Position numbers and translations under genes: made by a program. Source: Candidatus Magasanikiibacteriota bacterium (GTDB lineage: Bacteria; Patescibacteriota; Patescibacteriia; Magasanikbacterales; UBA922). From it: a DNA stretch of 64,000 nt. This document shows, piece after piece, positions 38,627-54,912 of the stretch (position 1 is the stretch's first letter; every line of letters starts with the position of its first letter). Under the pieces are notes generated by a model. That model worked only from the letters and a program-made list of their open reading frames with translations, ran no database searches and was not told the DNA's origin. The DNA lies in the NCBI GenBank assembly GCA_003518365.1, contig DOYU01000021.1, positions 492 to 64,491 of the forward strand, read 5' to 3'.

Positions 38627-38729
38627 ATAACAATTTTTACATGATAAACCACTTGCATTCATGCTGGTGGTTTATATTTACGCTCGTTCTAATTCTATGG
38701 ATGCTTTTGATAACGGCTACAAGTAAACA

Positions 38730-38860
38730 AAGGGTTTTGAGGGGGAAGCTGTTCGAGCCTCATCGCTTGTCAATGAGTACTTTATTAGCGCCGACACAGG
38801 CGAGTTCTTCCCCCCAACACTTTTTGTTACTTTTTGGTGACAAAAAGTAAGGAAAGAAGT
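38730..38860 (+). repeat. Copy 1 of a roughly 130-nt structured intergenic repeat
   Basis: Aligns over its full length with 54781-54912. Contains GGGGGAAG...CTTCCCCC outer complementarity and a perfect hairpin TTACTTTTTG-gtga-CAAAAAGTAA, and ends in GGTGACAAAAAGTAAGG. Confidence 0.7.
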
Positions 38861-39001
38861 GACTTACAGTGGGTGACCTAAAAATTTGTTTACAGAATAG
38901 ACTCTCATATACTGAATGACGTTCAAACGTGCAGCATGTTACTTTCTCACGATTCTATCGTATACTATAGTAGAAGCATACAAAAAGATATCTTTTTCCC
39001 C

Positions 39002-39571
39002 ATGAACAACACACATATACAGCGTTGGGCCGATGCCGCATCACACGGAGATCGTGAAGCTTTTGGTCGTCTCTATGATCTGTATATCAAAGAGATCTAT
39101 CGCTTTGTCTATTACAAAACACATCACACACAAACGGCAGAAGATTTGACTGCAGATATTTTTGTCAAAGCAATCAAAAATATTTCCTCATATGTTCACA
39201 CCCACGGATCCTTTCGCACATGGCTCTATACCATCACGCGAAGTGCAGTCATCGATCACTATCGGACACAAAAACATGATTCGCCCATAGAAGATGCATG
39301 GGACATCGTGCCAACAAAAGATACCACACAACAAATCCATGCACGCATAGAGATAGATCAGCTCAAACCGTATCTGGCACAATTGTCATCAGAACAGCGA
39401 GATATTCTTGTTCTCAGGCTATGGCAAGCAAAAAGCTATAAAGAAATAGCAGACATCCTCGGCAAAAGTGAAGCAAGCTGCAAAATGGCATTCTCCAGAT
39501 CTCTCAAAACACTTCGTGACAACATGCCCCTTCATCTCTTCCTCATGTTTCTTACCACTCCATTCTTATGA
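39002..39571 (+). CDS. ECF-type RNA polymerase sigma-70 family factor
   Basis: REAFGRLYDLYIKEIYRFVYYK (region 2) and YKEIADILGKSEASCKMAFSRSLKTL (region 4). Start set at ATG 39002. Confidence 0.85.
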   Translation: MNNTHIQRWADAASHGDREAFGRLYDLYIKEIYRFVYYKTHHTQTAEDLTADIFVKAIKNISSYVHTHGSFRTWLYTITRSAVIDHYRTQKHDSPIEDAWDIVPTKDTTQQIHARIEIDQLKPYLAQLSSEQRDILVLRLWQAKSYKEIADILGKSEASCKMAFSRSLKTLRDNMPLHLFLMFLTTPFL

Positions 39572-41067
39572 AAAAAATACATACATTTCTCAAAGAACTC
39601 TACGCCATCGATCCAACGCTGAAAGCGCATGAAACAGAACTCATCATACTCCTCACGCGCATGCTCGAACAAAAACCAGACGTACATATCGACGACGCAT
39701 TTGTATCCTCACTTCGAAAACGACTTGTGGGGACACCGGTACCGTCATCACCTTCATTCTTCACGCATCTTTTTATGAACAAACAACCAGCCTTCATTGC
39801 AACAGGTGCAGTCCTCTCGCTCGCGTTGCTCGTGGGTGTCTATCACTATGGCACGACACGTACAGGCATGATCTCAGGAGGCCAATTTGCTTCGATCTTT
39901 TCACCAAATGAGGTCGTCCACAGAAATGCAGGAGCCTTTGGTGTGCTCTCGTCAACAGAAAGCGCTGCCGCACCGACAGCAGAATCAGTCTCCTTTGATA
40001 CCAGTATGCTCAGCAGCCGTATGCCAGCAGATACGGTGGTCGGCATGGGTGGCGATGGCGTGGATGCAAAGATGATGATCGCGCCAGCACCATACCGCTA
40101 CACATACACGTATACTGGCGAGCCGCTCGAGCTCACTGACACCACGCTCCCAGTCTATCGACGCATCGTGCCAACGAATGCATCACAGGCACTCGGTACA
40201 CAACTCAGCAATGTCGGCACAGGTCTTGTCGATTTGTCCTCATTTGGCACACTGCATGCAGAAACGATTTCTATCTATGACAACGAATATCGTATCACTA
40301 TCGATATTGCCAATGGGCAAGCAAGTATTTATGAAAATTACGACAATCGACAGGACATCTATCGTGAAGCCACAGAAGCAGACATGTTGCCAGAACAACA
40401 ATTGATCGACATCGCAGATGCATTTTTACGCGCACACAATATCAGCACAGCGGGTTATGGCACACCAGTCGTAGATATGCAGTGGAAAACAGTGCAAGCA
40501 AAGCAAGAAACTGCTGATGCAGCATACCAGACGTATATTCCAAATATCATCACGATCATCTATCCATTCCAGCTCGAAGATCATACTGCGCATGACTATA
40601 GCGGATTGCCAGAGGGCATGCGTGTGAATGTCGACATCTTCACAAAAAAAGTAAATAATGTCTCAAATCTCATGGCAGGAGGATTTGAAGCATCAGACTA
40701 CGATGTGACGACAGACAGTAGCCGCGTGATCTCACTTGCAGAGCAAGGTGGACTCAACATGTATCCATGGTATGCAGAAGAGTCAGAAGAACGAATCCTC
40801 GAGCTCGGCACGCCAACGCTCGTCTATATCCAGCACTACTTGCCACAGGAAGGCAATGCACGTTCGTACGAAGTGTTTATCCCTGCACTCCAATTCCCTG
40901 TACAAAATATCCCAACAGATGAACCATTCTACAGCTCACGCATTATCACGATCCCGCTGGTCACCAATATTCTCGATGAAGAAAGAGACCGCCCGATCCC
41001 TACAGAACCACCGATCCTCCTGATGAAAGATGGTGCAGAGCCGGCAGTGGAACCTGCGGTAAGATAA
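39568..41067 (+). CDS. Single-pass membrane protein, putative anti-sigma partner or extracytoplasmic sensor
   Basis: Overlaps the sigma gene by ATGA. Cytoplasmic N-terminus, one TM segment (PAFIATGAVLSLALLVGVYHY), and a roughly 400-aa external domain with no recognisable family. Confidence 0.55.
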   Translation: MKKIHTFLKELYAIDPTLKAHETELIILLTRMLEQKPDVHIDDAFVSSLRKRLVGTPVPSSPSFFTHLFMNKQPAFIATGAVLSLALLVGVYHYGTTRTGMISGGQFASIFSPNEVVHRNAGAFGVLSSTESAAAPTAESVSFDTSMLSSRMPADTVVGMGGDGVDAKMMIAPAPYRYTYTYTGEPLELTDTTLPVYRRIVPTNASQALGTQLSNVGTGLVDLSSFGTLHAETISIYDNEYRITIDIANGQASIYENYDNRQDIYREATEADMLPEQQLIDIADAFLRAHNISTAGYGTPVVDMQWKTVQAKQETADAAYQTYIPNIITIIYPFQLEDHTAHDYSGLPEGMRVNVDIFTKKVNNVSNLMAGGFEASDYDVTTDSSRVISLAEQGGLNMYPWYAEESEERILELGTPTLVYIQHYLPQEGNARSYEVFIPALQFPVQNIPTDEPFYSSRIITIPLVTNILDEERDRPIPTEPPILLMKDGAEPAVEPAVR

Positions 41068-41082
41068 CAATTTATTTCAACA

Positions 41083-41160
41083 AAAAAGCCACTCACTTCC
41101 CCCCTGTACTGATGCTGAGAATCTCAGAAGCAATACAGGATGTGTGAGTGGCTTTTGTTG
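41083..41160. terminator. Long nested hairpin between convergent genes (bidirectional terminator candidate)
   Basis: AAAAGCCACTCAC (41085-41097) pairs with GTGAGTGGCTTTT (41144-41156). Inner stems are CCTGTA/TACAGG and CTGAGA/TCTCAG. Confidence 0.6.
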
Positions 41161-41210
41161 TACCGCCCACGCATCCCGTTGTCAGGGTTGGGGCGTGGGT
41201 GGAGCAGAGG

Positions 41211-42287
41211 CTACGCGAAGCCACGAACCTTCAGCTCGTGTCGAACCTGGTCTCCTACCAAGATCGGTGGGTAGAGGCTATCAATCGCAGCCAGGTGGTC
41301 CTCATTGAGGCCTTCCAAGAACATCGGTAATGGGCGAAGCATGTGATCCGATCGGAAATGAACAAAGAATGTGGACGACACACTGACCAACGGCCATCCC
41401 TCTTGTTCGGAATACTCCATCGCTTTAATGGTCTCTGGTAGGGAGACAACCTCGCTGAAGCTTGCCAAAAGCTTACCCCCGGTAAGCCACTCGAGCTGCT
41501 GTCCGACCTGCACGAGGAGCCAGCCATCAGGCACACAAACCTTCTTCGGCTGTCCGTCGGGGCCCCAGATAATGAGCCCTGGAAACCGAGACTTGCCGTG
41601 GATCGTCAATGCGTTCAAATCCGTATTGAAGGCATTGATGATCGTGTCCTTCTTGCCATGTTCTCGAAGGTTCACACCACTCGGAACCAGGAGATGTGGG
41701 GCTTTTTTCAACAAACGAGAGAAGGTATCACGTTTGAGCCCCTGTGCCAGCGCAAGCATTTCACAGACCGTACGAGCGGTCTCCAGCATCTTCTCTCCCA
41801 ATGCGTCCATCGTGCTGGCCCACTCATTCTTGAATCCGCTCGGGATTACCCGATCAGCGGCGTTCTGCACAGGAAAGGCGGTGGACGCCGGACGCTCACC
41901 AATAGGCCAGGAAAAACGCTCTCCCGGATCTCCCTTACAGTTGCAGGGCGTCACATAAGGGCGATATTCAGGCGGCATGCGGGCGATGAAACCACGATAA
42001 TCAGGAGGGCGCTCAATGTACGGTGGAGAAACTCCCACATGATAGCCCAGATCCGGTCGTTGATCATGGACCCGATCTTTGTAGGGGTTGCCGAAGTAAT
42101 CCTCAAGCATGTTCAGGTATCTTTCGTTGTCACTCGGCAAAATCCGCGGATCGCGCACAAAAACTGCTGAGTGCTGCTTCAACGATTTGAAGAGTCTCCT
42201 GGCCTGCGACATGTCGTGTTTCAATCCCTTCCTGCCTACAAATGTGGACAAGTGGACATATGGAATACCCAACGCCCCGTATCGCAT
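41211..42287 (-). CDS. 2OG-Fe(II) oxygenase superfamily-like protein (IPNS/DIOX_N-like), GC-rich; metal-binding residues appear substituted
   Basis: ATG 42287 is preceded by GAGGTG. N-terminus is IPYVHLS-like. The core LTIHG..FPGLIIW...DGWLLVQVGQQLEWLTGGKL aligns by eye to the jelly-roll consensus (HxD..GLQV....N.Gd.le.wTNg...S..HRV), but it reads NTD and SEV where HxD and HRV are expected. Confidence 0.45.
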   Translation of the reverse strand: MRYGALGIPYVHLSTFVGRKGLKHDMSQARRLFKSLKQHSAVFVRDPRILPSDNERYLNMLEDYFGNPYKDRVHDQRPDLGYHVGVSPPYIERPPDYRGFIARMPPEYRPYVTPCNCKGDPGERFSWPIGERPASTAFPVQNAADRVIPSGFKNEWASTMDALGEKMLETARTVCEMLALAQGLKRDTFSRLLKKAPHLLVPSGVNLREHGKKDTIINAFNTDLNALTIHGKSRFPGLIIWGPDGQPKKVCVPDGWLLVQVGQQLEWLTGGKLLASFSEVVSLPETIKAMEYSEQEGWPLVSVSSTFFVHFRSDHMLRPLPMFLEGLNEDHLAAIDSLYPPILVGDQVRHELKVRGFA

Positions 42288-42471
42288 GATTCACCTCGCT
42301 TTCTCACCAATACGAACATCGTATTGGGAAGTAAAGATACACTACACGACGTATTTCTGACGGTCAAGGTATGGGTTTGGAAGAGTGTTTTTTTGAAAGA
42401 AAATACGTTCGTATACGTACTACGTATATATGAGTACACAGTAGCGTAGATATTTTTTTTTATTACTCGTT

Positions 42472-43065
42472 ATGAACAAACATATTCTCGTTTCATTGTC
42501 TTTTTTATCAGTAGCTCTGGTAATTTCTGGTTGTGGAAATAACACAACTACACCCAATGCTTCTGATACAGGTACAGAGCCAGGTCAAGAACGATTTGGG
42601 AATAATCCAAATGCTCCACAAACTCAGGCTGATATTGTGGGTATTGTGAAATCTATGGTTGGGAATGAAGTGACCATTACTCAAATCGATATGGACAAAA
42701 TGCGTGAGGCAATGGCTGCCAGTAGGCCAGATAGCCAACCTGCAACGGGTGAGGAAGGAAGGAGTAATAATTTTGTCGCAGGAACAGGACCAGGTATGGG
42801 ACCGGGGGGCGGTATGGGTCCTGGTGGTGGTATGGGACCAGATGGTGCCAATATTGATAGTGAAGAAAGAAATCAAGCACTCTCTGACATGATGAAAGAA
42901 TATAGTGCAGGAGACGTAAAAGTAATACTTCCTGTAGGGATTGCGATGAACCGTCGTGGGGAAACAGCAAGTTTAGCTGATGTTGCTGTTGGTGCCAATC
43001 TTTCTATTTGGTTAAATACGTCAGTCAGTGACAAAAAAGTAGCTGAGTATGTAAGTATTAGATAA
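42472..43065 (+). CDS. Lipoprotein with a Gly/Pro/Met repeat (GPGMGPGGGMGPGGGMGP); first gene of a MacAB-like operon
   Basis: Signal peptide and lipobox LVISGC. Confidence 0.65.
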   Translation: MNKHILVSLSFLSVALVISGCGNNTTTPNASDTGTEPGQERFGNNPNAPQTQADIVGIVKSMVGNEVTITQIDMDKMREAMAASRPDSQPATGEEGRSNNFVAGTGPGMGPGGGMGPGGGMGPDGANIDSEERNQALSDMMKEYSAGDVKVILPVGIAMNRRGETASLADVAVGANLSIWLNTSVSDKKVAEYVSIR

Positions 43066-43066
43066 T

Positions 43067-44905
43067 ATGTCTCAAGAAGAATCAATCATTGCTCAAAGCA
43101 AAAAATTTCGTCGTGGAGGATACATACCAAAACTTTTGAAAAATAAAAAAGTACTGATGATAGTGCTTGTTTTGGTAATGACTCTTTCAGGCGGATATTA
43201 TGTGTATTCAAAAATCGCAAAGAACAATGATACCGCTGTTGCTACGAAAAAAACATATACCGTAAAAAAAGGTGATATTCGTATTTCTACCAATGCTGAC
43301 GGCAGTATTGTTGCCAAAGATGGTGTGAGTTTGTCTTTTTCGAGTACAGGTGTCACGATAAAAAATGTATATGTAAAAGAAGGCGATATCGTCAAAAAAG
43401 GTGACAACATTGCAACAGCCGATACAGGTACCCAAAGCATTGATTTGCAATCAGCGTATGCTTCGTATACGTCTGCGAAAGCAAGTTATGAAGAAAAAAT
43501 TGCAGGACCTACAGAAAATGATTTGGCTTCCTACAAAAATTCTGTTGAAAGTGCTCAAGCAAGTCTTGATAAGACGTTGAAACAAAATGAATATGCAATA
43601 CAGAGTGCGGAAAGTTCTCTAGAAACAGCTCTTGCTAATTTGAAATTGTCAGAAGGTGGTGAACAGAGTCAGATAGTACAAGATGCGTACAACGATATAT
43701 ATCTGGATTCACTCAGTGCGGTGACGAATCTGAATGCAGCGCTTACTGCCTCAGATAATATTCTTGGTATTGACAACATATTTGCCAATGATGTTTTTGA
43801 AAATGTATTATCAGTCTTAGATAGTGCGAGCATTTCTCAGGCAAGAAATTCTTATCTTGTTGCAAAACATACGTTGACAACTGCAGAAAATGCCGTTGTG
43901 GTATTGAATGCTTCTTCTCCTCAAGGAGATATGTTGGCGAGTGCCCAATTAGTTCTAGTAGCTATTACCCAAATGCATCAGCATTATTATGATATGCAAG
44001 AAATGCTTGTAGCAACGCTACCCATTGGTGATCTGTCACAAAGCTCCTTAGAGAGTATGCGAAGCAGTGTGAATAGCAAAAAATCATCCATGGTTTCTTT
44101 GCTCAGTTCTTTCAATGCTTCTCTGAAAGCCATAGATACAGCAACATCAAGTTATGATTCATATAAAAGAGCATATGAAAATGCTCTCCAAGCATTGGAA
44201 AAAGCAAAGAGTGATGCTGAGTCTTCTGAAATAAGTGCCAGATTGAGTCTACAAAATGCAGAACAACAGTTGAAAGAGGCATCGGCTCCTTTGACAGAGT
44301 CTGAGCGTAGTTCCGCCAAGAGTAGTCTTGCAAATGCAAGTGCAAGTGTACAAAAACTTCAATATCAAATAGATCAATCTACGCTCAAATCCCCGATTGA
44401 TGGTGAAGTGGTATTGTTGAATGGGAAAACAGGAGACATCATCGTGGATGAAAAAAATTCTCCTTTTGTAACAATTTTGAATAAAGAAACATTTTTTGTT
44501 GAGACAAATATAGAGGAATCTGAAATAAGTAACATCCAAGTTGGTCAAAAAGCTCACATCATTGTTGATGCACTCGATGAAGCAACGCTTGAGGGTACGG
44601 TCAATTTTATTTCCCTTACTTCTGAAAGTGGTACTGGTGGTGTTGTGACGTACCTTGTGCGTGTGTTGCTAGATGATACAGAGTATGTTGATGTGAGAGA
44701 AGGAATGACGGCAGGTGTGGACTTCGTGATTGCGGAATCAAATGATGTCCTGATGGTGCCAGTGCAAGCAGTACAAAATGTAAATGGCAAACCTGCAGTA
44801 ACCATGAACAATGGAGATACCAGAGACGTTGTCACTGGTTTTACAGATGGACAAACAGTGGAGATTATTTCTGGATTAGAAGTTGGAGAACAAGTAACCT
44901 ATTAA
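43067..44905 (+). CDS. Periplasmic adaptor (HlyD/MacA-type membrane fusion protein) with a very long coiled coil
   Basis: N-terminal TM segment, lipoyl-like VKEGDIVKKGDNIA, about 300 aa of coiled coil, and a C-terminal beta-barrel (SPIDGEVVLLNGKTGD). Confidence 0.75.
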   Translation: MSQEESIIAQSKKFRRGGYIPKLLKNKKVLMIVLVLVMTLSGGYYVYSKIAKNNDTAVATKKTYTVKKGDIRISTNADGSIVAKDGVSLSFSSTGVTIKNVYVKEGDIVKKGDNIATADTGTQSIDLQSAYASYTSAKASYEEKIAGPTENDLASYKNSVESAQASLDKTLKQNEYAIQSAESSLETALANLKLSEGGEQSQIVQDAYNDIYLDSLSAVTNLNAALTASDNILGIDNIFANDVFENVLSVLDSASISQARNSYLVAKHTLTTAENAVVVLNASSPQGDMLASAQLVLVAITQMHQHYYDMQEMLVATLPIGDLSQSSLESMRSSVNSKKSSMVSLLSSFNASLKAIDTATSSYDSYKRAYENALQALEKAKSDAESSEISARLSLQNAEQQLKEASAPLTESERSSAKSSLANASASVQKLQYQIDQSTLKSPIDGEVVLLNGKTGDIIVDEKNSPFVTILNKETFFVETNIEESEISNIQVGQKAHIIVDALDEATLEGTVNFISLTSESGTGGVVTYLVRVLLDDTEYVDVREGMTAGVDFVIAESNDVLMVPVQAVQNVNGKPAVTMNNGDTRDVVTGFTDGQTVEIISGLEVGEQVTY

Positions 44906-44916
44906 GACTGAATGGT

Positions 44917-45627
44917 ATGAGTGAAGAAGTTGTCATACAATTGAAAGATGTCCACAAATCTTATTATTTAGGCAATGGCGAAGAAGTACAGGTCTTAAAA
45001 GGGGTTGATGTAGAAATAAAAAAGGGAGAATTTGTCGCACTCATGGGAGAGTCTGGTGGTGGAAAAACCACGTTACTCAATATTCTAGGATGCCTCCATC
45101 CCCTCTCTTCTGGTACATATTTACTCGAAGGAGAAAATATTGGAGATGTCCGTGATGATGGAACGCTCGCGTTTATCCGTAACAAAAAAATGGGCTTTGT
45201 GTTTCAACAATTCAATTTGTTGTCACGTCTCAGTGCTCTCAAAAATGTGGCATTGCCAAGTCTGTATGCAGGAGTCGACAAAGAAACGAGAAACACAAAA
45301 GCAAAAGAACTGTTAAAACTTTTATCAATGGAAGAAAGAACAGAACACAAACCAACAGAGCTTTCGGGTGGTCAACAACAACGTGTCGCCATAGCACGCG
45401 CGCTGATGAACGACCCTGAAATAATTTTGGCAGATGAACCGACAGGTGCTCTTGATTCAAAAAATGGTTTGGAGATTATGGAAATTTTCAAAAATTTCAA
45501 AAACCAACAAAAGACGGTCGTGATGGTAACGCATACCGCAGAAGTTGCAAAATACGCTGACAGAATTATCTATATGCGTGATGGTAAAATTTTGGATACT
45601 CATTATCAGTTGAAGAGTGAGTACTAA
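44917..45627 (+). CDS. ABC transporter ATP-binding protein (MacB/LolD type)
   Basis: [35 protein letters not shown]. Confidence 0.9.
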   Translation: MSEEVVIQLKDVHKSYYLGNGEEVQVLKGVDVEIKKGEFVALMGESGGGKTTLLNILGCLHPLSSGTYLLEGENIGDVRDDGTLAFIRNKKMGFVFQQFNLLSRLSALKNVALPSLYAGVDKETRNTKAKELLKLLSMEERTEHKPTELSGGQQQRVAIARALMNDPEIILADEPTGALDSKNGLEIMEIFKNFKNQQKTVVMVTHTAEVAKYADRIIYMRDGKILDTHYQLKSEY

Positions 45628-45685
45628 TTTTTTGTGAATATACTAGGTAAAAAATTAGAGTTTACGAGGATCATTTGTTGAACGT

Positions 45686-46894: not shown

Positions 46895-46952
46895 CACATT
46901 TTGATTGATGTATACATATACTTGACTTTTTCTGATATTTCATACAGTATAG

Positions 46953-47013
46953 AAGTATACTTACTTCTCTGGACTTCCGATTTCTACCACAAATTCACAG
47001 AGTATAGTATACT
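46953..47013. promoter_or_regulatory. Two palindromic AGTATACT boxes upstream of hicB (candidate autoregulatory operators)
   Basis: AAGTATACTT at 46953-46962 and AGTATACT at 47006-47013, 52 bp apart centre to centre. Half-site-like AGTATAG motifs lie adjacent to each. Confidence 0.35.
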
Positions 47014-47036
47014 TAAAAAGTACGTAAACATTTTAT

Positions 47037-47354
47037 ATGTGGAACACTATATATCGTTTTTTCTTCCCAGCGCTTTCGCCTGCTGAAATAAAAAAAACAT
47101 ATAATATCCCAAACAAATTTAATCTACGCATCCGATTTACTCCTGATGGTTTTTTTGTCTTGACCTGTGAAGAATTGCCAGGCCTCGTAACAGAGGCAAA
47201 AAATGGCAAAGATCTTATAAGAATGTTTAACGATGCCGTATTATCTTACTATGATGTTCCTAAAAAAATAGGAGATGTGGTCCATGAGAAAATGATTATT
47301 GACGGATACGGAACATTTGTATTGCAGGACAACAAGGTTGTCCAACCAGCGTAA
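47037..47354 (+). CDS. hicB: HicB-like (UPF0150) antitoxin
   Basis: DGFFVLTCEELPGLVTEAKNGKDLIRMFNDAVLSYY fits the HicB N-terminal fold pattern. It is paired with hicA 5 nt downstream. The start codon is uncertain. Confidence 0.6.
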   Translation: MWNTIYRFFFPALSPAEIKKTYNIPNKFNLRIRFTPDGFFVLTCEELPGLVTEAKNGKDLIRMFNDAVLSYYDVPKKIGDVVHEKMIIDGYGTFVLQDNKVVQPA

Positions 47355-47359
47355 ACCAT

Positions 47360-47620
47360 ATGGGGAGGCAAGATTTCAATAGAAAACAATGTATACGAGC
47401 ATTACTAAAACTGGGATTTGTAAAAGATAATAAACGACGTGGGAGTCATGACAAATTCAAGGCACCCGAACATGTATTACAACAAAGACAAGCAAATCAG
47501 CCCCCTTTTATCATGGTTCCAAGGTCAAGACAACTTCACTGCCAGTTGGAAATATTGAAAGAACTATGGGCTTTTGGTGGCGATGCATTTGTGGAAGAAT
47601 TTTTAGGCCATATAAAATAA
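47360..47620 (+). CDS. hicA: HicA-family mRNA interferase toxin
   Basis: RKQCIRALLKLGFVKDNKRRGSHDKF...VPRS matches the HicA/YcfA pattern, including the catalytic GSH. Confidence 0.7.
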   Translation: MGRQDFNRKQCIRALLKLGFVKDNKRRGSHDKFKAPEHVLQQRQANQPPFIMVPRSRQLHCQLEILKELWAFGGDAFVEEFLGHIK

Positions 47621-47630
47621 AAACACAGTT

Positions 47631-47924
47631 GTGTCCTTATTAAGGGGAAAAAACAATTCGAGAACAAATAGAAATATAGTCTTCTTTGTAGTCTCTTTTT
47701 TTATTACATTGAATCTTTTTGGTTACACCGGACCACATATTCTAAATCTAATTTTATACTTAGCTTTTTCCGCGTGGTTGACTATCCCCATATTTTCCTA
47801 TAAAGAAGAAAATGTTGACCTAACAAAGTTAATTATCGGTTACCTTTTGTGGGTCGCTATCCAATATTCCATTGTACTATTTGGCATTGCACCTCCAGAA
47901 GGATCGGGAATCCCTCATTTTTAA
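47631..47924 (+). CDS. Hypothetical small membrane protein (GTG start)
   Basis: ORF-track only. Three hydrophobic segments and no recognisable family. Confidence 0.35.
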   Translation: MSLLRGKNNSRTNRNIVFFVVSFFITLNLFGYTGPHILNLILYLAFSAWLTIPIFSYKEENVDLTKLIIGYLLWVAIQYSIVLFGIAPPEGSGIPHF

Positions 47925-47943
47925 TGATTACCTCCAATAACTT

Positions 47944-48375
47944 ATGGACAAAGAAAAGATTGATTTTGAATTTCTAAAAATTCAAATGGACTCATTGCAT
48001 ACTTCAGTACGTTCTAAATTAGCGATTGTTCCACAAATTGCTGCTTTGTCAGCAACAGTTCTTGTTATAGCAACTTTTAGCGATGAACTTTTACAAATAA
48101 CAGGATTATTTAAAGCATCATTATCAGTATTACTCGCATTAATACCAATATCACTTTTGTTTTATCTAATTGAGGTTCATATATCTATAGATAAAGGTGT
48201 TAAAATTATTGAAGAAATTACTAAAGCTGCGCCAGGAGAATTGATGAAAAAAGTAACAGAGAAGCAACCGAAAAAAATAGTATTATTCAATTTTTTGGCA
48301 AATTACTATCCTTTTTTTGCTACAATTCTGTTATCACTCGTGATAGTCTATACTATTTCCCAAATTTGGTGTTAA
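47944..48375 (+). CDS. Hypothetical membrane protein
   Basis: 143 aa with three or four hydrophobic helices and no recognisable family. Confidence 0.45.
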   Translation: MDKEKIDFEFLKIQMDSLHTSVRSKLAIVPQIAALSATVLVIATFSDELLQITGLFKASLSVLLALIPISLLFYLIEVHISIDKGVKIIEEITKAAPGELMKKVTEKQPKKIVLFNFLANYYPFFATILLSLVIVYTISQIWC

Positions 48376-48386
48376 GGTGACTCTCC

Positions 48387-50183: not shown

Positions 50184-50235
50184 ATGCGGACATGCTAGCA
50201 GAAATATGCAGAAAAATCCAGGGAAACAATACAAC

Positions 50236-50262
50236 AAAAAACGCCTTTTGAAAAAGCGTCCT
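50236..50262 (-). terminator. Intrinsic terminator after the Gfo/Idh/MocA gene
   Basis: The reverse strand reads ACGCTTTTTCAAAAGGCGT followed by TTTTTTG. Confidence 0.5.
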
Positions 50263-50276
50263 TTGTAAAAAGTATG

Positions 50277-51302
50277 TTATGAAATTCTGACACTTTCCCC
50301 ACTTTCCATAGACGCATATGAAGCTTCCACAATCTCGAGCGTCGATAAGACTTCATCTTTTGTAATATAGGCAGGAGCATGGTGAAACATCACATCATAC
50401 ATATTTTGGATCACACCAATATGCCCATATCCATAGACCGTATCTGCAGTATCGGGAAATGATACGGCTCGATACGCGTCTTCTCCGAGCCCTTGCCAAG
50501 AAACAATTTCATCCATTGCTTTGCCACCAATTTTGACTGTGGCATGTTCAAAACACATCGTAATACTTCCTTCTAAATTTTCTGGATACGAAATAGTATT
50601 CACCTGACACGATCCTATCACATCATTATGAAATTTTACTTGCAATGAGACGACATCTTCACTCTCCATTGCATGTCCATAATTGCCACCAAACGCAAAC
50701 ACATGTTTTGGTGTAGACTCGACGACATGACACATCATATCGACATAATGAATTCCCTGATTCATGAGCACACCACCTTCCAAATCTTTTTTGCCATGCC
50801 ATCCATCATCATAATAACTTTGTGGACGATACCAAAAACAAGATGCATTGACATATTGCAATGTCCCGACAACATCTCTTTGCGTCTGCAAAAATCGTAC
50901 CGGAGGATTAAATCTATTTTGCATCACAGGCAACAACAATCTGCTATATTCTGTTGCCACATCAAACATATCTTTTGCATCAGAGAATTTCATGGCAAGT
51001 GGTTTTTCAACAATCACATCTTTTCCAGCTTTCATACTATCTATGGCAATCTGCCGATGTGATGCAGGAGGCGTACAGATAGCAATAACATCCACCGTGT
51101 CATCTTGAAGCAACGCCTGATAGTCCGTATACATGCGTACACTTCCGTCTATTGTATGGACCAAGGCATCCATTCTTGCCTGATCAGTATCACAGAGAGC
51201 AACAATGGTTGCGTGTGTTACCGCATGGACAGCGTGAATATAGGTAGAAGCAATACGCCCACATCCAATAAGTCCAATGCGAAGAGATTTGTGTGTTGTC
51301 AT
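50277..51302 (-). CDS. Gfo/Idh/MocA family oxidoreductase
   Basis: LRIGLIGCGRIAS Rossmann motif and the EKPLA motif. Start set at ATG 51302. Confidence 0.85.
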   Translation of the reverse strand: MTTHKSLRIGLIGCGRIASTYIHAVHAVTHATIVALCDTDQARMDALVHTIDGSVRMYTDYQALLQDDTVDVIAICTPPASHRQIAIDSMKAGKDVIVEKPLAMKFSDAKDMFDVATEYSRLLLPVMQNRFNPPVRFLQTQRDVVGTLQYVNASCFWYRPQSYYDDGWHGKKDLEGGVLMNQGIHYVDMMCHVVESTPKHVFAFGGNYGHAMESEDVVSLQVKFHNDVIGSCQVNTISYPENLEGSITMCFEHATVKIGGKAMDEIVSWQGLGEDAYRAVSFPDTADTVYGYGHIGVIQNMYDVMFHHAPAYITKDEVLSTLEIVEASYASMESGESVRIS

Positions 51303-51638
51303 ACGTGTCTCAGTTAAAAAACAGGATCGATATATATCGTACCATATATGTAAAAACTGCATAGGGTGTCTCCTATCTTGGCTTTTTGTATAAAAAAAGA
51401 TAGAATGACCTACTTTTTGATTTGACATCGCTTTTTTGTACGTGATTCTCTCCCGTATACAAAAGCTGGGTCAACTCGACCAAAGAAATACCTCGGAGGA
51501 ATTTCCATGATCAAGTTCATCGTCACCGCCGGGCCGGCGCTGACACCCATGACCCACTCTCTCCGGAGGTGGGTCTGTTGCTTTCTATCGCATTCTATTT
51601 TACTATGAATAGTATAATAACCTTTTAAGCCTTCCCCT

Positions 51639-51995
51639 ATGCCGGAACAACTCCACCACGGCAGCTGCCACTGCGGCGCTGTCGCATACGATGTGACCAT
51701 GTCACTCGACAACACAATCACCTGCAATTGTTCTATGTGCGGACGCGCAGGAACCATTCTTGCGTTTGTGCCAGCAGAAAAATTCACCCTTCTCTCAGGA
51801 GAAGACGCACTCACAAATTATCAATTCAATAAAAAAGTGATTGATCATCTCTTTTGCAGCATCTGCGGGATCAAAGCATTTGGGAAAGGAAAAGACAACG
51901 ATGGGAATGATACCGTTGCAGTAAATGTTCGCTGTCTTGATGGTGTTGATATTGAAAGTCTTTCCCCGTATCAGTACGATGGCAAAAATGTATAA
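51639..51995 (+). CDS. GFA (glutathione-dependent formaldehyde-activating / CENP-V) family protein
   Basis: HHGSCHCGAVAY, CNCSMC and FCSICG zinc-binding Cys clusters. Confidence 0.85.
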   Translation: MPEQLHHGSCHCGAVAYDVTMSLDNTITCNCSMCGRAGTILAFVPAEKFTLLSGEDALTNYQFNKKVIDHLFCSICGIKAFGKGKDNDGNDTVAVNVRCLDGVDIESLSPYQYDGKNV

Positions 51996-52060
51996 GAAAT
52001 CCCCATCGACAAATTACGTTTGCCAACAATGTTCATCATAATGTATGTACATTACAGCAA

Positions 52061-52124
52061 CCCTCTTCCCTTAAGCTGTTTGTCCCGATTTGATCGGGAT
52101 TGGTGACAAAAAGTAAGGGAGGAA
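52061..52124 (+). repeat. Partial third copy of the structured repeat (3' core GGTGACAAAAAGTAAGGGA, with a GTCCCGAT..ATCGGGAT hairpin)
   Basis: Shares CTTCCC..TAA and the 19-nt 3' core with 38730-38860 and 54781-54912. The central hairpin is replaced by GTCCCGATTTGATCGGGAT. Confidence 0.55.
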
Positions 52125-52126
52125 AT

Positions 52127-52158
52127 AAAAAACGTTCGCCATATCAGCAAACGTTTTT
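52127..52158. terminator. Bidirectional intrinsic terminator
   Basis: AAACGTT-13 nt-AACGTTT flanked by an A-run and a T-run, between convergent genes. Confidence 0.55.
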
Positions 52159-52173
52159 ACTATATCATGAATA

Positions 52174-53046
52174 TTATTTCTTCTCCTGCGGAGATTTTGG
52201 GAGTTGTATGTCTGACATCGGCGGTTGCTGCGGCATCTTTTTCATACCGTAGAAAAGAGCGCCAAACATGAACCCAAGGAGAATGATCGAGTATACATAC
52301 GGCACAGGAAAGACCATCAAAAGCATGATGAGCTGCACAATCGTAGGAACGGTCAGTGCATACACACCGATGGTGAACACCTGCCAATAGGTAATAGGCT
52401 TTTTGTCTGCGCGCGCGACCACGTAGACCAGCCATGACATAATACCCAGAAAAAACAATTTCCACATGCCCAGAAAACCGGTAATCACAAGCGCAATAGC
52501 AAGCAAAATCCACGGCATGGCACCCTGAAAAAATGTTGTTAATTTGTCACTCACCTGCTGTCTTGTCACAGAAAAGGAAGGAACATTTTTGATATATTCT
52601 GTTTGGACATTCTTCAAATCCTGATCATAGACTTTGATCAGTTTACTCGTGAGCACGAGCGTTGGTATCTCATCGACAACATCGCCACGCGCGTCTTCGA
52701 TACTCACAGAACTCGTTGTCACGGTATCAACATAGAGGAGCATGGCATCACCTTCTGTACTTTCAAAAATCTGACGATATGGCTGTTCCAATCCTGAAAT
52801 GGATAAGGTGCCATCCTGCACTGATACAGCAACATCTGGTGCATTCTCAGTCACTTCATTCCAATACACCAATGCTTGTGATGGCAAATCTCGGACGAAC
52901 AGATAGCCACCAATCACCACGACAAGAAAAAAGAATATGAAAAAATACGCAAGCGCGCTGCCAAGTTTTTCTCGGTTTGATGCCAGCCAGGTGACATCAT
53001 AACAACTTTTGTAGAAGGCTGTTGCAATATGTTTGAGAAATTTCAT
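52174..53046 (-). CDS. Polytopic membrane protein (DUF1189-like); tentative
   Basis: N-terminus MKFLKHIATAFYKSCYDV followed by a TM segment, an extracytoplasmic loop and four C-terminal TM helices. Family assignment is by pattern only. Confidence 0.45.
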   Translation of the reverse strand: MKFLKHIATAFYKSCYDVTWLASNREKLGSALAYFFIFFFLVVVIGGYLFVRDLPSQALVYWNEVTENAPDVAVSVQDGTLSISGLEQPYRQIFESTEGDAMLLYVDTVTTSSVSIEDARGDVVDEIPTLVLTSKLIKVYDQDLKNVQTEYIKNVPSFSVTRQQVSDKLTTFFQGAMPWILLAIALVITGFLGMWKLFFLGIMSWLVYVVARADKKPITYWQVFTIGVYALTVPTIVQLIMLLMVFPVPYVYSIILLGFMFGALFYGMKKMPQQPPMSDIQLPKSPQEKK

Positions 53047-53130
53047 AATAAATCCTGATATGCGGATAATCCAGATCAACAGATACGTATCCGTGGATCT
53101 GGATTATCTGGATATCCGTATGCTGCTACA

Positions 53131-53157
53131 AACAAAAACACCCCTGTTACGGGGCGT
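53131..53157 (-). terminator. Intrinsic terminator after rpmG
   Basis: The reverse strand reads ACGCCCC-GTAACA-GGGGTGT followed by TTTTGTTTGT. Confidence 0.55.
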
Positions 53158-53166
53158 AGTGTACCA

Positions 53167-53322
53167 TTACTTGGTTTCCTTGTGCAAAGTATGAGTGCCG
53201 CAAGTTGGGCAGAGTTTCTTGAGCTCGAGGCGATCCTTGAGCTTTTGTTTATTTTTTCTAGAAAAATGGTTGATCTGCTTGCACTGCTCACATTGCAGCT
53301 TGATCATCTGTTTCTGTGCCAT
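53167..53322 (-). CDS. rpmG: 50S ribosomal protein L33
   Basis: Not in the ORF track (51 aa). My translation is MAQKQMIKLQCEQCKQINHFSRKNKQKLKDRLELKKLCPTCGTHTLHKETK, with the CxxC...CxxC zinc ribbon of L33. Confidence 0.85.
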   Translation of the reverse strand: MAQKQMIKLQCEQCKQINHFSRKNKQKLKDRLELKKLCPTCGTHTLHKETK

Positions 53323-53449
53323 ATGATTAATTACAGAATGATGTTAGTAGTGCAAAGACTATACAGGATTGCGGGAGATTTGTCAATACACACATAAAGG
53401 GAAGAGCCTCCATTGATTTTTGGCTCTATTATGCTATCCTCTGTCATAT

Positions 53450-54700
53450 ATGAGAGTAGCCATCGTAGGTGGAGGCGCCGCTGGCATGATGTGCGCCGCA
53501 ACTATCGCAGAGGAATATCCACATGTGGAAATCTTTGTGCTCGAAAAAAACGCCTCTCTTGGCAAAAAAGTCATTATTTCCGGTGGTGGGAGATGTAATG
53601 TTACGACCGGTATAGAAGACATTGCATTGGTACTCGAAAAATATCCTCGCGGCAATAAATTTCTCCAATCTGCCATGCATCGATTTTCTCCGAGCATGGT
53701 CTATGCTTGGTTTGAAGCACATGGCGTTCCACTCAAATGTGAAGACGATTTGCGAGTGTTTCCCGTATCAAATAATGGGAAAGATATTGTGGCGGTGTTT
53801 GAAGATATATTTGAAGAAGCAGACGTTCACGTCAAATATAAACACAATGTACAAGATATAACAAAAAAAGAAACAGGATTTGTTCTTTCTTTCAAAGATC
53901 AAAATGATCTCGAGGTAGACAAGGTCGTCATGGCACTCGGTGGACAAGCGTATCGTCACACCGGATCTACTGGCGACGGATATTATATCCTCGAACAATT
54001 GGGACACACAATCACTCCCCTTGCACCAAGTCTCAATTCTTTTTTGACAAAAGAATCCTGGCCAAAAGAACTTTCTGGCCTTTCATTTCAAAAAGCAACC
54101 ATTTTTGTACACGGACAAAAAAAACAATATAACAGTACCGGCCCATTTCTCTTTACCCATACTGGTGTCAGCGGCCCGGCAGTGTTTGCACTGTCTTCTC
54201 GAATTGCATTTCTTGACTATGACAAAACGAATCCACTCGCAATACAGATAGATGTCTTTCCAGACCAGACAGAACAAGAACTTCTTGAAAGACTTCAACA
54301 AACGAGAGAAGAACACATGCAAAAAACATTCAAAAATACGTTACCCCACTTGGTAGCGAAGTCACTTGCAGAAGAAATGTGTATCCAACTCGATATTCCC
54401 CTCGATAAAAAAAATGCCGACATGAGTAAAAAAGAATTGGCACGTATCGCAACATATGTAAAAGGAATACCACTCGAAGTAATTGGACGCGGTGCAGGAG
54501 ATGAATTTGTGACTGCCGGTGGCGTCGAACTCACAGAGGTCGACCCAAAAACAATGGAATCAAAAATATGTCCTGGACTGTACTTTGCAGGAGAAATTCT
54601 TGACGTCGACGGCTATACAGGCGGATTCAACTTACAAGCGTCTTGGGCAACTGGGAATGCTGCGGGTATAGCGATTGGAAGTAATGTGCCATTAGCCTAA
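53450..54700 (+). CDS. HI0933/BaiN-like NAD(P)/FAD-dependent oxidoreductase
   Basis: VAIVGGGAAGMMCA, ISGGGRCN, and the C-terminal GLYFAGEILDVDGYTGGFNLQ. Confidence 0.85.
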   Translation: MRVAIVGGGAAGMMCAATIAEEYPHVEIFVLEKNASLGKKVIISGGGRCNVTTGIEDIALVLEKYPRGNKFLQSAMHRFSPSMVYAWFEAHGVPLKCEDDLRVFPVSNNGKDIVAVFEDIFEEADVHVKYKHNVQDITKKETGFVLSFKDQNDLEVDKVVMALGGQAYRHTGSTGDGYYILEQLGHTITPLAPSLNSFLTKESWPKELSGLSFQKATIFVHGQKKQYNSTGPFLFTHTGVSGPAVFALSSRIAFLDYDKTNPLAIQIDVFPDQTEQELLERLQQTREEHMQKTFKNTLPHLVAKSLAEEMCIQLDIPLDKKNADMSKKELARIATYVKGIPLEVIGRGAGDEFVTAGGVELTEVDPKTMESKICPGLYFAGEILDVDGYTGGFNLQASWATGNAAGIAIGSNVPLA

Positions 54701-54780
54701 ATACCAACAATTTTGGATTTGTCACCATGACCATGACGTCTGACATTAATTTGAATTACGAAAAACATTTCTTCTTATCC

Positions 54781-54912
54781 AAGGGGTTTTAAGGGGAAAG
54801 CTGTTTGAGCCTAAGTGCTTGCCAATGAGTATTTTCTTAGCACCGACACAGGCGAGTTCTTTCCCCTAACACTTTTTGTTACTTTTTGGTGACAAAAAGT
54901 AAGGGAAGAAGT
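54781..54912 (+). repeat. Copy 2 of the roughly 130-nt structured intergenic repeat
   Basis: Full-length alignment with 38730-38860. Substitutions are scattered and the last roughly 45 nt are nearly identical. Confidence 0.7.

Follow-up and report, generated by a model that had tools for sequence, protein, structure and literature searches.

We show here, by covariance-model and blastn searches complemented with folding and covariation analysis, that a repeat present three times in the window (the whole 64,000-nucleotide stretch of Candidatus Magasanikiibacteriota DNA that was analysed) is a structured RNA of ~125-135 nt with a two-domain fold, structured via the + strand. The evidence strongly supports a real, orientation-specific structured element, and as far as we have seen its family is previously uncatalogued and so far restricted to Patescibacteria (CPR), the ultra-small bacteria to which the host itself belongs. 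The element is probably a protein-binding or regulatory RNA, and we tentatively favour a multi-copy small non-coding RNA, scaffold or regulatory, that would act with a putative partner.

The two full-length copies can be aligned end to end, as a sequence-only reading of this DNA had claimed: blastn joins 38728-38860 and 54780-54912 in a 133-nt alignment (E 2e-47) that is 89.5% identical and has a single 1-nt indel. The blastn match of the short copy C to the full copies is restricted to 52100-52127 (25-28 nt, 92-93%), and besides this segment it shares the 10-mer AAGCTGTTTG at 52073-52082. The window has just three occurrences of the 17-mer GGTGACAAAAAGTAAGG, each on the + strand, against 0.16 matches in the shuffled window even with three mismatches permitted, so the similarity is not due to chance, which is also what the earlier reading had held. 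It had further placed all three copies on the + strand, 3' of + strand genes, and indeed they start 66-102 nt past the stops: copy A 102 nt after ORF 37280-38626, copy B 80 nt after ORF 53420-54700 and copy C 66 nt after ORF 51639-51995. Copy A is flanked by a terminator-like hairpin of its upstream ORF and by an ECF sigma gene (38936-39571), while copy B lies between convergent genes for a flavoprotein (53420-54700, +) and a RarA-like protein (54956-56086, -). Stop codons fall within the sole open frame of copy A, and no opposite-strand peptide was found.

Table 1. Copies of the element in the window and their parts, with positions counted from the first nucleotide of the window.
Feature	Position	Strand	Details
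Copy A, long form	38728-38862	+	CM R1 match 38732-38856, 133.8 bits, E 5e-30
Copy A, P0 outer extension	38733-38739 / 38816-38820	+	The two segments pair
Copy A, P1 5' strand	38741-38748	+	GGGGGAAG; pairs with 38807-38814
Copy A, J1/2 (internal-loop strand)	38749-38756	+	CTGTTCGA; consensus CUGUUUGA
Copy A, P2 around variable arm	38757-38801	+	GCC/GGC
Copy A, J2/1 (internal-loop strand)	38802-38806	+	GAGTT; invariant in 11/11 copies
Copy A, P1 3' strand	38807-38814	+	CTTCCCCC; covaries with 38741-38748
Copy A, U-tract 1	38820-38826	+	CTTTTTG; invariant
Copy A, H3 (3' hairpin)	38827-38850	+	TTACTTTTTG - GTGA (GNRA loop) - CAAAAAGTAA
Copy A, purine-rich tail	38851-38862	+	GGAAAGAAGTGA; likeness to copy B stops at ~38860
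Copy C, short form	52061-52127	+	blastn, shared words, fold
Copy C, outer stem	52061-52073 / 52114-52122	+	CCCTCTTCCCTTA pairs with TAAGGGAGG
Copy C, replacement hairpin	52083-52099	+	TCCCGATTTGATCGGGA
Copy C, shared 3' core	52100-52118	+	TTGGTGACAAAAAGTAAGG
Copy B, full-length	54780-54914	+	CM match 54784-54908, 130.4 bits
Copy B, P1	54793-54800 / 54859-54866	+	
Copy B, J1/2	54801-54808	+	
Copy B, P2	54809-54811 / 54851-54853	+	
Copy B, J2/1	54854-54858	+	
Copy B, U-tract 1	54872-54878	+	
Copy B, H3	54879-54902	+	
Copy B, tail	54903-54912	+	

Domain 1 consists of a 13-14 bp outer helix (P0/P1) that closes an invariant asymmetric internal loop, followed by the short P2 and a dispensable variable arm, which is shrunk to a plain GC hairpin in L025 and L020 (L numbers denote loci of further copies). 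J1/2 shows almost no variation across the 11 full-length copies, and its GA and that of J2/1, which flank P2, may form tandem sheared G-A pairs. Domain 2 runs from the U-tract through an invariant 10-bp A/U hairpin with a GUGA tetraloop (H3) to the purine tail. U-tract 1 directly repeats the core of the H3 5' strand and can pair alternatively with an A-tract (MFE alternative) or with the purine tail; for the latter pairing 73% of cells are paired and the changes are one-sided, A-to-G only, while H3 is paired in 100% of cells across copies. Both the GGGGRAAG...CTTYCCCC complementarity and the 10-bp hairpin that had been pointed out earlier are present in the full copies.

Compensatory changes in the predicted helices, whose absence the sequence-only reading had named as evidence against it, are abundant: 14 of the 26 modelled base pairs carry compensatory double changes among the 11 full-length copies, compared with 6.4 +/- 1.5 in shuffles (0/500 attain the observed 14) and 0-3 in controls with slid partners. 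Pairing is kept in 93.7% of cells over the 11 distinct copies, and the covariation score is 0.365 vs 0.142. Double changes affect 9/13 pairs of helix 1 and, in at least one copy, all three pairs of P2 (G-C to C-G in L025, C-G to U-A in L012b); in H3 they occur at two pairs, in L025 (UUCC/GGAA) and L012b. The G-U pairs in P1, the GNRA loop and the A-to-G-only variation opposite the U-tract identify the + strand as the structured RNA strand. L025 is the ortholog of copy B, with the same synteny and an adjacent flavoprotein that is 85% identical; there the element has been retained, P2 and H3 each carrying compensatory changes, within a spacer that is otherwise unalignable. Where it persists, the element is thus under purifying selection.

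Copy C had been described as exchanging the 10-bp hairpin for another one. The replacement hairpin is there, but the swap is larger, as TCCCGATTTGATCGGGA stands for the whole inner module, that is everything between CTGTTTG and TTGGTGAC (its length is 77-78 nt in the two full window copies and 79 nt at the L004/L013 locus). The GGGGRAAG/CTTYCCCC helix is absent from this copy, and its + strand folds at -28.8 kcal/mol (z = -4.5). L013 too has this hairpin in place of the inner module, while L004 is the long form at that locus; these two contigs are closely related, with flanks 96% identical, yet carry different forms at one locus. Copies are likewise gained, lost and truncated: an 84% relative has only a truncated copy A, the site of copy B is empty or otherwise filled in relatives whose flavoprotein is 87-89% identical, and the L002 copy sits inside a 157-nt pdxS-pdxT spacer that is unrelated in a 77% relative and only 5 nt long in a 69% relative.

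The search for copies beyond the window that the earlier reading had proposed found them in other genomes of several CPR lineages, namely nine further full-length members in Parcubacteria, Magasanikbacteria and Saccharibacteria MAGs and metagenome contigs. Identity of the window copies to contigs binned as Saccharibacteria or Magasanikbacteria is 82-87% over ~120 nt. An exact 19-mer matches only five CPR species genomes, in three classes, among 185,579 bacterial and archaeal species genomes; the 45-nt 3' domain is identical in all copies retrieved by it, which is partly an ascertainment effect, as members were gathered by this exact 19-mer. Two long copies and one short copy were found in ~74 kb of the host genome. 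No copy turned up in the >300 kb of other CPR loci examined, nor in another 92 kb from related Magasanikbacteria. The proposed Rfam search gave no match among the 4227 Rfam 15 families, and no earlier description was found in the literature.

This patchy presence in close relatives would suit a regulator and a dispensable or selfish element equally well. The main rival explanation, which we consider rather unlikely, is a non-autonomous mobile element whose structure would serve its own propagation and which would move within and between CPR genomes and stay in intergenic safe sites, either as a PATE-type ssDNA of the IS200/IS605 kind, as an orphan guide scaffold in the style of omega-RNA or bridge RNA, or as a SINE-like RNA that the reverse transcriptase of a group II intron or DGR located elsewhere would copy. 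The gain and loss described above fit this explanation, including the change of form at one locus, as does the wide but sparse spread of the 19-mer. Paralogues within one genome (89.5%) are about as diverged as copies binned to other CPR classes (84-87%), eight of 12 copies occupy convergent gene ends, which are typical safe sites, and a semi-conserved CCAA(T) lies immediately 5' of the element. However, terminal inverted repeats are absent, as are target-site duplications at the compared filled and empty sites, and there is no second end-hairpin like H3. No transposase, reverse transcriptase, integrase or TnpB/IscB-like gene lies beside the copies or in the 64-kb window, no phage, plasmid or IMG/VR viral contig matched, and the low copy number as well as the compensatory, non-neutral evolution of the L025 ortholog also speak against mobility. 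A strict REP/MITE is not supported, given the lack of terminal inverted repeats, target-site duplication, a short palindromic unit and a transposase, and sequence conservation across CPR classes instead of within a species.

Flanking genes vary (RecQ, pdxS/pdxT, FtsH, an SSB operon, LOG, VanW, tRNA-Ser, ECF sigma, RarA), and the absence of a conserved neighbour gene among the recovered copies argues for action in trans. A cis role similar to that of REP/BIME, at the upstream transcript's 3' end or inside operons, with the two stable helices acting as a block to 3' exonucleases, an insulator of convergent transcription or an RNase III processing site, appears improbable. It would agree with the window copies, L001, L002 and L025, which are co-oriented with the upstream gene and start 60-110 nt past its stop, with the many copies at convergent junctions and the one within the pdxS-pdxT operon, and with the ability of domain 2 to form a hairpin of ~16-21 bp. 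However, the upstream neighbour of L004 is a tRNA-Ser in divergent orientation and the two L012 copies diverge head to head, so that these copies have no co-oriented upstream gene whose 3'UTR they could be, which contradicts a generic 3'UTR element. In addition, a canonical-looking terminator hairpin of the upstream gene precedes copy A, close relatives do without the element at the same sites, and an exonuclease block alone would need neither the invariant 13-nt internal loop nor sequence identity across classes. Among the three options of the sequence-only reading (small RNA, 3'UTR element, REP/MITE-like repeat), the small RNA fits best.

A 5' leader or riboswitch governing the downstream gene is very improbable and largely refuted by the gene contexts. 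Some copies do precede a gene, with distances of 75 nt from copy A to the ECF sigma gene, 17 nt from the L002 copy to pdxT and ~60 nt from the L020 copy to an ORF, and the tail resembles a Shine-Dalgarno sequence (AAGGA). In contrast, eight of 12 copies face a convergent gene, the downstream genes are mutually unrelated, there is neither a terminator nor a covarying sequestering helix, and complementarity between the P1 3' strand and the tail is not preserved in L001-type copies. The sigma gene also has a plausible promoter 3' of copy A, read by eye and not reported by the promoter scan.

How would such a small RNA be made, and what might it bind? Either a weak -10-type promoter of its own could drive transcription, or the RNA could be cut from read-through transcripts. 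The sequence 5-10 nt upstream contains a -10-like hexamer, whose mean best score is 4.18/6, vs 3.29 +/- 0.24 at random positions drawn from whole loci and not from AT-rich spacers alone; in L001, L002 and L012b the box is TGTATAAT or TGTATTAT, and in L001 and L002 it belongs to the repeated unit. In a simple sigma-70 scan, neither copies A and B nor the L012 pair was preceded by a full -35/-10 promoter. No U-tract terminator follows H3, and a same-strand, terminator-like hairpin within 60 nt is seen for only 2-3/11 copies. The internal loop and the 3' hairpin, both invariant, may be the recognition surfaces for a conserved putative partner encoded elsewhere, a protein or another RNA, which would make the element an RNP scaffold or a regulatory RNA, with the helices and variable arm serving as scaffold only.

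Alternatively, the invariant junction could belong to a new class of self-cleaving ribozyme, dispersed and patchy like hammerhead, twister, pistol and hatchet; by analogy this is conceivable but quite improbable. The CUGUUUGA / GAGUU junction places GA...GA around P2 as in hammerhead G8-A9 / G12-A13, and the covarying stems, optional arm, multiple copies and lack of conserved gene context would be in line with a ribozyme. Yet even at E <= 10 none of the ribozyme families in Rfam matches, the junction is two-way and not three-way, GAAA and UH elements are absent, and there is no sign of a cleavage site. The element is like hammerhead and other small ribozymes in patchy dispersal, an invariant junction, tandem GA beside a helix and covarying or replaceable peripheral stems; the core nucleotides differ.

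Similar to REP, BIME and REPIN sequences, the element is structured and intergenic, often at gene 3' ends, convergent junctions or in operons, and forms inverted pairs (L012). REPs, however, are species-specific imperfect palindromes of 20-40 nt that number in the hundreds and move by means of RAYT transposases, whereas the element folds into two domains over 125 nt, its invariant loop is not palindromic, and no RAYT was seen. The bcr1 and related repeats of the Bacillus cereus group are chromosomal, intergenic, ~130-155 nt long and orientation-specific, with a conserved predicted RNA structure, and bcr1 is variably present in close relatives, as is the CPR element. In contrast, bcr1 has tens to more than 100 copies and MITE-like features, whereas the CPR element is low-copy, without TIR or target-site duplications; to our knowledge bcr1 is confined to one species group, while the CPR element is common to distant CPR classes. 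IS200/IS605 PATEs and TnpB omega-RNA scaffolds are also structured, ~100-150 nt long and found as non-autonomous copies, with a conserved hairpin ~10 nt from the 3' boundary followed by variable sequence and a short semi-conserved motif at the 5' boundary (CCAA in the element), and could act with a protein encoded elsewhere. The element differs in having no matching left-end hairpin, no tnpA/tnpB in the window or beside copies, no Rfam omega-RNA or IS605-orfB match, and, in L001 and L002, an upstream -10-like box within the repeat unit. Multi-copy sRNA families (Qrr1-5, csRNAs, LhrC1-5, Sib/QUAD) resemble it in having several intergenic paralogues per genome with near-identical functional segments, and in copies that come and go between relatives. 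These families have clear promoters, Rho-independent terminators and single-stranded seeds, and Sib an antisense toxin ORF; the element shows weak promoter evidence, no terminator, no opposite-strand peptide and class-spanning conservation. Finally, in comparison with the orphan ncRNA motifs (raiA, ROOL, HEARO and the Weinberg/Breaker sets in Rfam), the element stands outside the Rfam families, is multi-copy and Patescibacteria-restricted as far as seen, and has no gene association that hints at function. Those motifs are likewise defined by covariation and have no assigned function, and the element shares with them invariant loops, variable stems and optional arms, at a size typical of small structured RNAs.

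The element found at three loci of the window defines a new conserved family of two-domain structured RNAs of Patescibacteria, present in multiple copies and dynamically gained and lost. As the sequence-only reading had proposed, its two long copies (A and B) align over their full length: across 133 nt, blastn finds 89.5% identity (E 2e-47), the differences being 13 substitutions and a single 1-nt indel. The short copy C has only the 3' core and AAGCTGTTTG in common with them. A resemblance beyond chance is borne out by the 17-mer GGTGACAAAAAGTAAGG, which occurs exactly three times in the window and on the + strand only, against a shuffle expectation of 0.16 matches with 3 mismatches permitted, and by + strand RNA folds that are more stable than those of shuffled sequences (z-scores of -3.0, -2.2 and -4.5 in copies A, B and C). 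The hairpin of copy C that had been described as replacing a 10-bp hairpin of the long copies is indeed present (TCCCGATTTGATCGGGA), but it stands in place of the entire inner module, and the outer G/C helix is missing as well. All three copies lie on the + strand downstream of + strand genes, as was claimed, with an ORF ending 66-102 nt before each. In ~74 kb of this genome there are two long copies and one short copy.

Table. Locations of the copies, their parts and neighbouring features in the window and at contig loci outside it (L numbers).
Feature	Location	Strand	Detail
Copy A	window 38728-38862	+	long form; aligned part 38728-38860
Copy B	window 54780-54914	+	long form; aligned part 54780-54912
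Copy C	window 52061-52127	+	short form
3' core of copy C	window 52100-52127	+	25-28 nt, 92-93% identity to A/B
AAGCTGTTTG in copy C	window 52073-52082	+	
Frame open through copy A	window 38641-38850		rejected as a gene
Terminator-like hairpin AACCACTTGCATTCATGCTGGTGGTTTATATTT	window 38640-38675		between ORF 37280-38626 and copy A
Defence-island-like stretch	window 23221-30999		
HicA-like small ORF	window 47360-47620		among small ORFs at 47037-48375
tRNA-Thr	window 56813-56885		without 3'-end duplicate
Copy-A remnant	L049:7290-7345		orthologue of window 38720-38940
GC-rich insert	L057:1650-1800; L053:16130-16290		flavoprotein 89% identical
AT-rich palindrome AAGAAACAAGATACAAATT...AAATTTGTATCTTATTATTTGTTTCTT	L031:1526-1610		pdxS-pdxT spacer of 77% relative
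tRNA-Ser-like gene	L004:885-975	-	divergent to element
tRNA-Ser-like gene, tandem duplicate	L013:6220-6310, 6569-6660		divergent to element
Hairpin TCCCGA-N4-5-TCGGGA	window 52083-52099; L013:6849-6864; L053:18102-18118, 18165-18181, 16178-16194; L057 ~1698-1714		17 nt
tRNA-Thr 3' end AATTCTGGATGACGGCTCCAAAAGCTC	L053:18440-18560		repeated ~90 nt downstream
Conjugation-like cluster	L043:17108-20786		same genome, ~7-10 kb past window's right end

Homologues are found in other genomes of the Candidate Phyla Radiation (CPR) and in metagenome contigs. We searched species-representative genomes and JGI metagenomes with the exact 19-mer TTGGTGACAAAAAGTAAGG and compared the returned loci by blastn. 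Full-length relatives of ~120 nt (82-87% identity) are L006, on a contig binned as Saccharibacteria, and L004 (identical to L009), from Magasanikbacteria RIFOXYD12_FULL_33_17. The 5' domain is diverged and the 3' 45-60 nt are identical in L001 and L002, two copies within Parcubacteria SI034_bin149, in L007 from Parcubacteria BM521, and in L012 and L020 from metagenome contigs; L012 carries a second, divergent copy (L012b) head-to-head, 88 nt away. L013 is a short form like copy C and L011 a decayed one, and the other 19-mer matches are due to chance. A 45-nt segment is identical in all copies recovered with the 19-mer, on contigs binned to three CPR groups, although the invariance of the 3' domain is partly apparent because the members were collected with that exact 19-mer. 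The paralogues A and B (89.5%) are no closer to each other than copy A is to the Saccharibacteria-binned copy (87%).

A covariance model built from 11 copies recovers exactly these 11, at 100-134 bits, and adds none from the rest of the window or from 201 kb of loci; searching another 10 kb of this genome and >300 kb of loci from related CPR also yielded no copy. The window's own genome is absent from the species-representative 19-mer matches although the window has three exact 19-mer copies; either the assembly is not the species representative there or the region is masked. An origin in phages, plasmids or viruses was rejected, as blastn gave no match in phage and plasmid collections and pattern scans of IMG/VR gave chance matches only, within coding sequence or below 14 bits by the covariance model. 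No Rfam family matches the element: at the gathering threshold, Rfam 15 finds only three tRNAs in the whole window, and matches at E <= 10 for the copy A region, the L012 pair and L001 do not rise above chance (the best has 21.8 bits, where the gathering score is 50). A full-text literature search for the core sequence and for CPR non-coding RNA motifs returned nothing relevant.

The modelled fold begins with an outer helix of 13 pairs (P0/P1; for instance GGGGAAAG/CUUUCCCC, GGGUGACUG/CAGUCACCC and GGGGGAUCCGA/UCGGUCCCCC), followed by an invariant internal loop of 13 nt (5' strand CUGUUUGA, 3' strand GAGUU) and an inner helix, P2, whose variable arm measures 10-45 nt; in L020 and L025 this arm is no more than a GC hairpin. 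The linker AACAC leads to the 3' domain, with the invariant U-tract CUUUUUG, the hairpin H3 (UUACUUUUUG-GUGA-CAAAAAGUAA) and the purine tail GGAAAGAA. In the model-based alignment of 11 copies, 93.7% of cells are paired and 14 of 26 pairs show two-sided changes, compared with 6.4 +/- 1.5 in shuffles (0/500 as high), so that the compensatory changes against which the repeat idea was to be checked are present; sliding the 3' partner by 1-3 columns lowers the two-sided pairs to 0-3, and RNAalifold agrees with the modelled fold. This covariation signal is among the clearest obtainable with only 11 sequences. H3 itself has compensatory changes in L025 (UUCC/GGAA) and in L012b (UCCUUUUG/CAAAAGGA), and opposite the U-tract the tail varies between A and G only, with 73% of cells paired. 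Because of the G-U pairs in P1, the GNRA loop and the A/G-only variation of the tail, we assign the structure to the + strand, as RNA or possibly as single-stranded DNA.

The thermodynamic optimum often pairs the U-tract 5' of H3 with the A-rich 3' strand of H3 (the A-tract). Since the substitutions in L025 and L012b keep H3 and weaken this alternative, we take H3, possibly extended by pairing between U-tract and tail, to be the conserved fold and reject the minimum-free-energy hairpin. Three further arrangements were tried and rejected: the tail and the 3' strand of P1 could pair in copy B, in the manner of a riboswitch-like anti-SD switch, but this complementarity is lost in L001-type copies; pairing of the 5' internal-loop strand of the long form with the A-tract fails because its U-to-C changes in copy A and L025 are uncompensated; and the layout of strands is incompatible with a standard k-turn or sarcin-ricin motif. 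The ENE-like order U5 - GUUAC - U5 - GGUGA - A5 has the strand polarity right for a triple helix, and Watson-Crick alternatives are equally explanatory. Ordinary Watson-Crick pairing also explains L012b, in which both U-tracts and the A-tract are all shortened to 4 nt.

What might such an element do? Its flanking genes are mutually unrelated (RecQ, pdxS/pdxT, FtsH, the rpsF-ssb operon, LOG, VanW, tRNA-Ser, an ECF sigma factor and RarA), and a convergent gene faces 8/12 copies, which argues against a leader. Riboswitches and other 5' leaders have a consistent co-oriented downstream gene or gene class and an expression platform, whereas the genes downstream of the element are unrelated and neither a terminator nor a covarying sequestering helix accompanies it; we therefore give a leader or riboswitch next to no credence. 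The proposal of a 3'UTR element suits the window copies, which follow + strand ORFs, but does not hold generally, because no co-oriented gene precedes L004 or the L012 pair. A role as a cis-acting 3'-end or insulator element seems to us improbable. Upstream of copy A, the terminator-like hairpin AACCACTTGCATTCATGCTGGTGGTTTATATTT is kept in the L049 orthologue; the simple terminator scan did not call it.

A -10-like hexamer is enriched 5-10 nt upstream of the element (4.18 versus 3.29 +/- 0.24 at random positions), and a TGTATWAT box occurs in 3 copies, belonging to the repeated unit in L001 and L002. A simple scan found no full sigma-70 promoter at copies A, B and the L012 pair, CPR promoters being poorly known, and an ECF-type promoter within the element was rejected, as its AAC motif is not kept in L001-type copies. 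Trans-acting sRNA genes have their own promoter and, at an intrinsic terminator, the defined 3' end of a discrete transcript; here, no U-tract terminator comes after H3, and just 2-3/11 copies have a terminator-like hairpin on the same strand within 60 nt. Our preferred, tentative reading is of a small non-coding RNA that would use its invariant loop and 3' hairpin to bind a conserved partner encoded at another place in the genome. Pfam and NCBIfam scans of window ORFs and flanks gave no candidate for a partner or mobility gene in the neighbourhood; transposases, reverse transcriptases, integrases and TnpB/IscB were absent from nearly all large window ORFs and from the genes flanking nine other copies.

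Related genomes show how the copies come and go. L025, whose flavoprotein is 85% identical to that of the window and which shares the flavoprotein/RarA synteny, has the element at the copy-B position; its arm is shorter there, and P2 and H3 show compensatory changes. As the element was kept in this way while the surrounding spacer diverged until it could not be aligned to the window, purifying selection acts on the RNA structure in situ. At the copy-B site of two further relatives (flavoproteins 87-89% identical), L057/L053 have a GC-rich structured insert and L058 a spacer of just 35 nt. The insert was rejected as a homologue (global alignment z = 1.7, not significant); it measures ~110 nt, has a predicted fold of -60 kcal/mol and is flanked by two CCCTCCTT...AAGGAGGG hairpins. 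At the copy-A site of L049, an 84% relative, only the first ~29 nt are left, fused to the start of the sigma gene, and no copy occurs within 92 kb of a 56% relative. The L049 remnant directly abuts the RBS and start codon (ATG) of the ECF sigma gene, which is called as two fragments (104 + 84 aa) and may be a pseudogene.

In L002 the element sits within the 157-nt pdxS-pdxT spacer. It was gained there, because this spacer is an unrelated 85 nt in a 77% relative and 5 nt in a 69% relative; comparing the filled site with the empty ones reveals no target-site duplication. The 77% relative has a long AT-rich palindrome in the spacer, unrelated to the element. L004 and L013 represent one locus (they are 96% identical across 280 nt and have a divergent tRNA-Ser beside the element), which is long in L004 and short in L013, the inner 79 nt being swapped for TCCCGACGAGTCGGGA. 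This difference is most simply explained if long and short paralogues were converted into one another by way of CTGTTTG and TTGGTGACAAAAAGTAAGG, the segments that they share. The tRNA-Ser anticodon was read by eye. A protein-less mobile RNA or single-stranded DNA element would suit such gains and losses; against it speak the lack of a mobility gene beside the copies whose flanks were scanned and the conserved structure kept in L025. We regard it as unlikely, though worth serious consideration.

The 17-nt hairpin TCCCGA-N4-5-TCGGGA turns up repeatedly as a replacement module. It takes the place of the inner part of the long element in copy C and L013, lies within a long stem in the L053/L057 flavoprotein-RarA spacer, and comes after a 7-nt tRNA-Val acceptor fragment; it also substitutes for the 5' anticodon-stem strand of a truncated tRNA-Val just upstream of the intact one in L053. 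A small palindromic mobile module is one possible origin, a recombination scar another. Also in L053, the repeated tRNA-Thr 3' end resembles the attachment sites used by integrative elements.

The window itself is an unremarkable segment of a CPR chromosome. Candidatus Magasanikbacteria bacterium GW2011_GWD2_43_18 encodes a protein with 100% identity to the flavoprotein adjoining copy B, the close homologues of this flavoprotein are all from Patescibacteria, and contig LCFY01000002.1 of GCA_000999365.1 is 100% identical across 14 kb of the window. Its genes include SMC, ClpP, PurA-PurB, IMPDH, ProABC, ECF sigma factors, a MacB-type ABC exporter, ABC-F, RarA, BipA, restriction-modification, GmrSD and three tRNAs; Pfam and NCBIfam scans of nearly all large ORFs found no transposase, integrase or reverse transcriptase. 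The stretch resembling a defence island encodes RhuM/Fic, an EcoRI-type adenine methyltransferase, a GmrSD-like endonuclease, DUF2779, a HerA-like ATPase and a 432-aa ORF without annotation. The HicA-toxin match of a small ORF is weak (E 2e-5, under the Pfam cut-off), and several small ORFs without annotation surround it. The type IV secretion or conjugation-like cluster of L043 comprises a TraG-like P-loop ATPase, a TraC-like protein and a PrgI-like protein.

CPR genomes are tiny (~1 Mb) and have very little non-coding DNA, and to our knowledge almost nothing is known of their regulatory RNAs. That a multi-copy 125-nt RNA with such covariation from 11 sequences is junk is unlikely. As a regulatory or RNP RNA, it would be among the first lineage-specific non-coding RNAs for this large uncultured radiation; as a selfish element, it would be unusual in being a protein-less mobile RNA or single-stranded DNA that crosses class boundaries. 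Either way, it provides a defined covariance model searchable in all CPR genomes and a short RNA testable in vitro. More speculatively, and with little confidence, the element might be the RNA half of an as yet undescribed RNA-dependent system of CPR bacteria (RNA-guided, RNA-templated or a new ribozyme), with the invariant loop and 3' hairpin as the handle for any protein partner encoded elsewhere, horizontal movement between class-level CPR lineages, and long and short cassettes exchanged by recombination.

Finally, we compared the element with known classes. The defining features of MITEs, REPs, attC sites, PATE/omega-RNAs, hammerheads, riboswitches and type I toxin-antitoxin repeats were tested and are absent, so that the earlier suggestion of a REP/MITE-like repeat, taken strictly, lacks support. 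Read directly, the 5' end AAGGGGTTTTAAGGGG and the reverse-complemented 3' end ACTTCTTCCCTTACTTT show no similarity to each other, unlike the terminal inverted repeats of a MITE, the sole inverted match in self-blast is the internal H3 hairpin, and the flanks of 11 copies lack the direct repeat of a target-site duplication. REP/BIME/REPIN sequences are high-copy, species-specific, RAYT-associated imperfect palindromes of 20-40 nt, whereas the element is a 125-135 nt unit without overall palindrome, is conserved between CPR classes, and has no Y1 transposase among the window ORFs scanned. IS200/IS605 PATEs and TnpB omega-RNAs have similar subterminal hairpins at both ends, and tnpA/tnpB beside them or elsewhere in their genome; the element has one H3-type hairpin, and no TnpA/TnpB in the window or beside any copy. 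Integron attC sites pair end to end through R''/R' core sites (RYYYAAC ... GTTRRRY) in a co-oriented cassette array, whereas the two ends of the element do not pair together, its 3' end lacks GTTRRRY and there is no cassette array. A new self-cleaving ribozyme is very unlikely; the hammerhead has a three-way junction with CUGANGA, GAAA and a UH cleavage site, whereas the element has a two-way junction (P1/P2) with its own invariant strands and no Rfam hammerhead match. Type I toxin-antitoxin repeats (Sib/QUAD-like) carry a conserved small hydrophobic ORF on one strand, whereas the sole frame open through copy A has stops in all other members, no ORF was seen by eye on the minus strand of copy B, and an 8-aa TTG-started peptide within the 3' domain is too short to count; judging by these frames, the element does not appear to encode a peptide. 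The family is new but its general kind, the structured small RNA or repeat, is known; its closest behavioural analogues are orphan structured motifs, multi-copy sRNA families and dispersed structured repeats such as bcr1.
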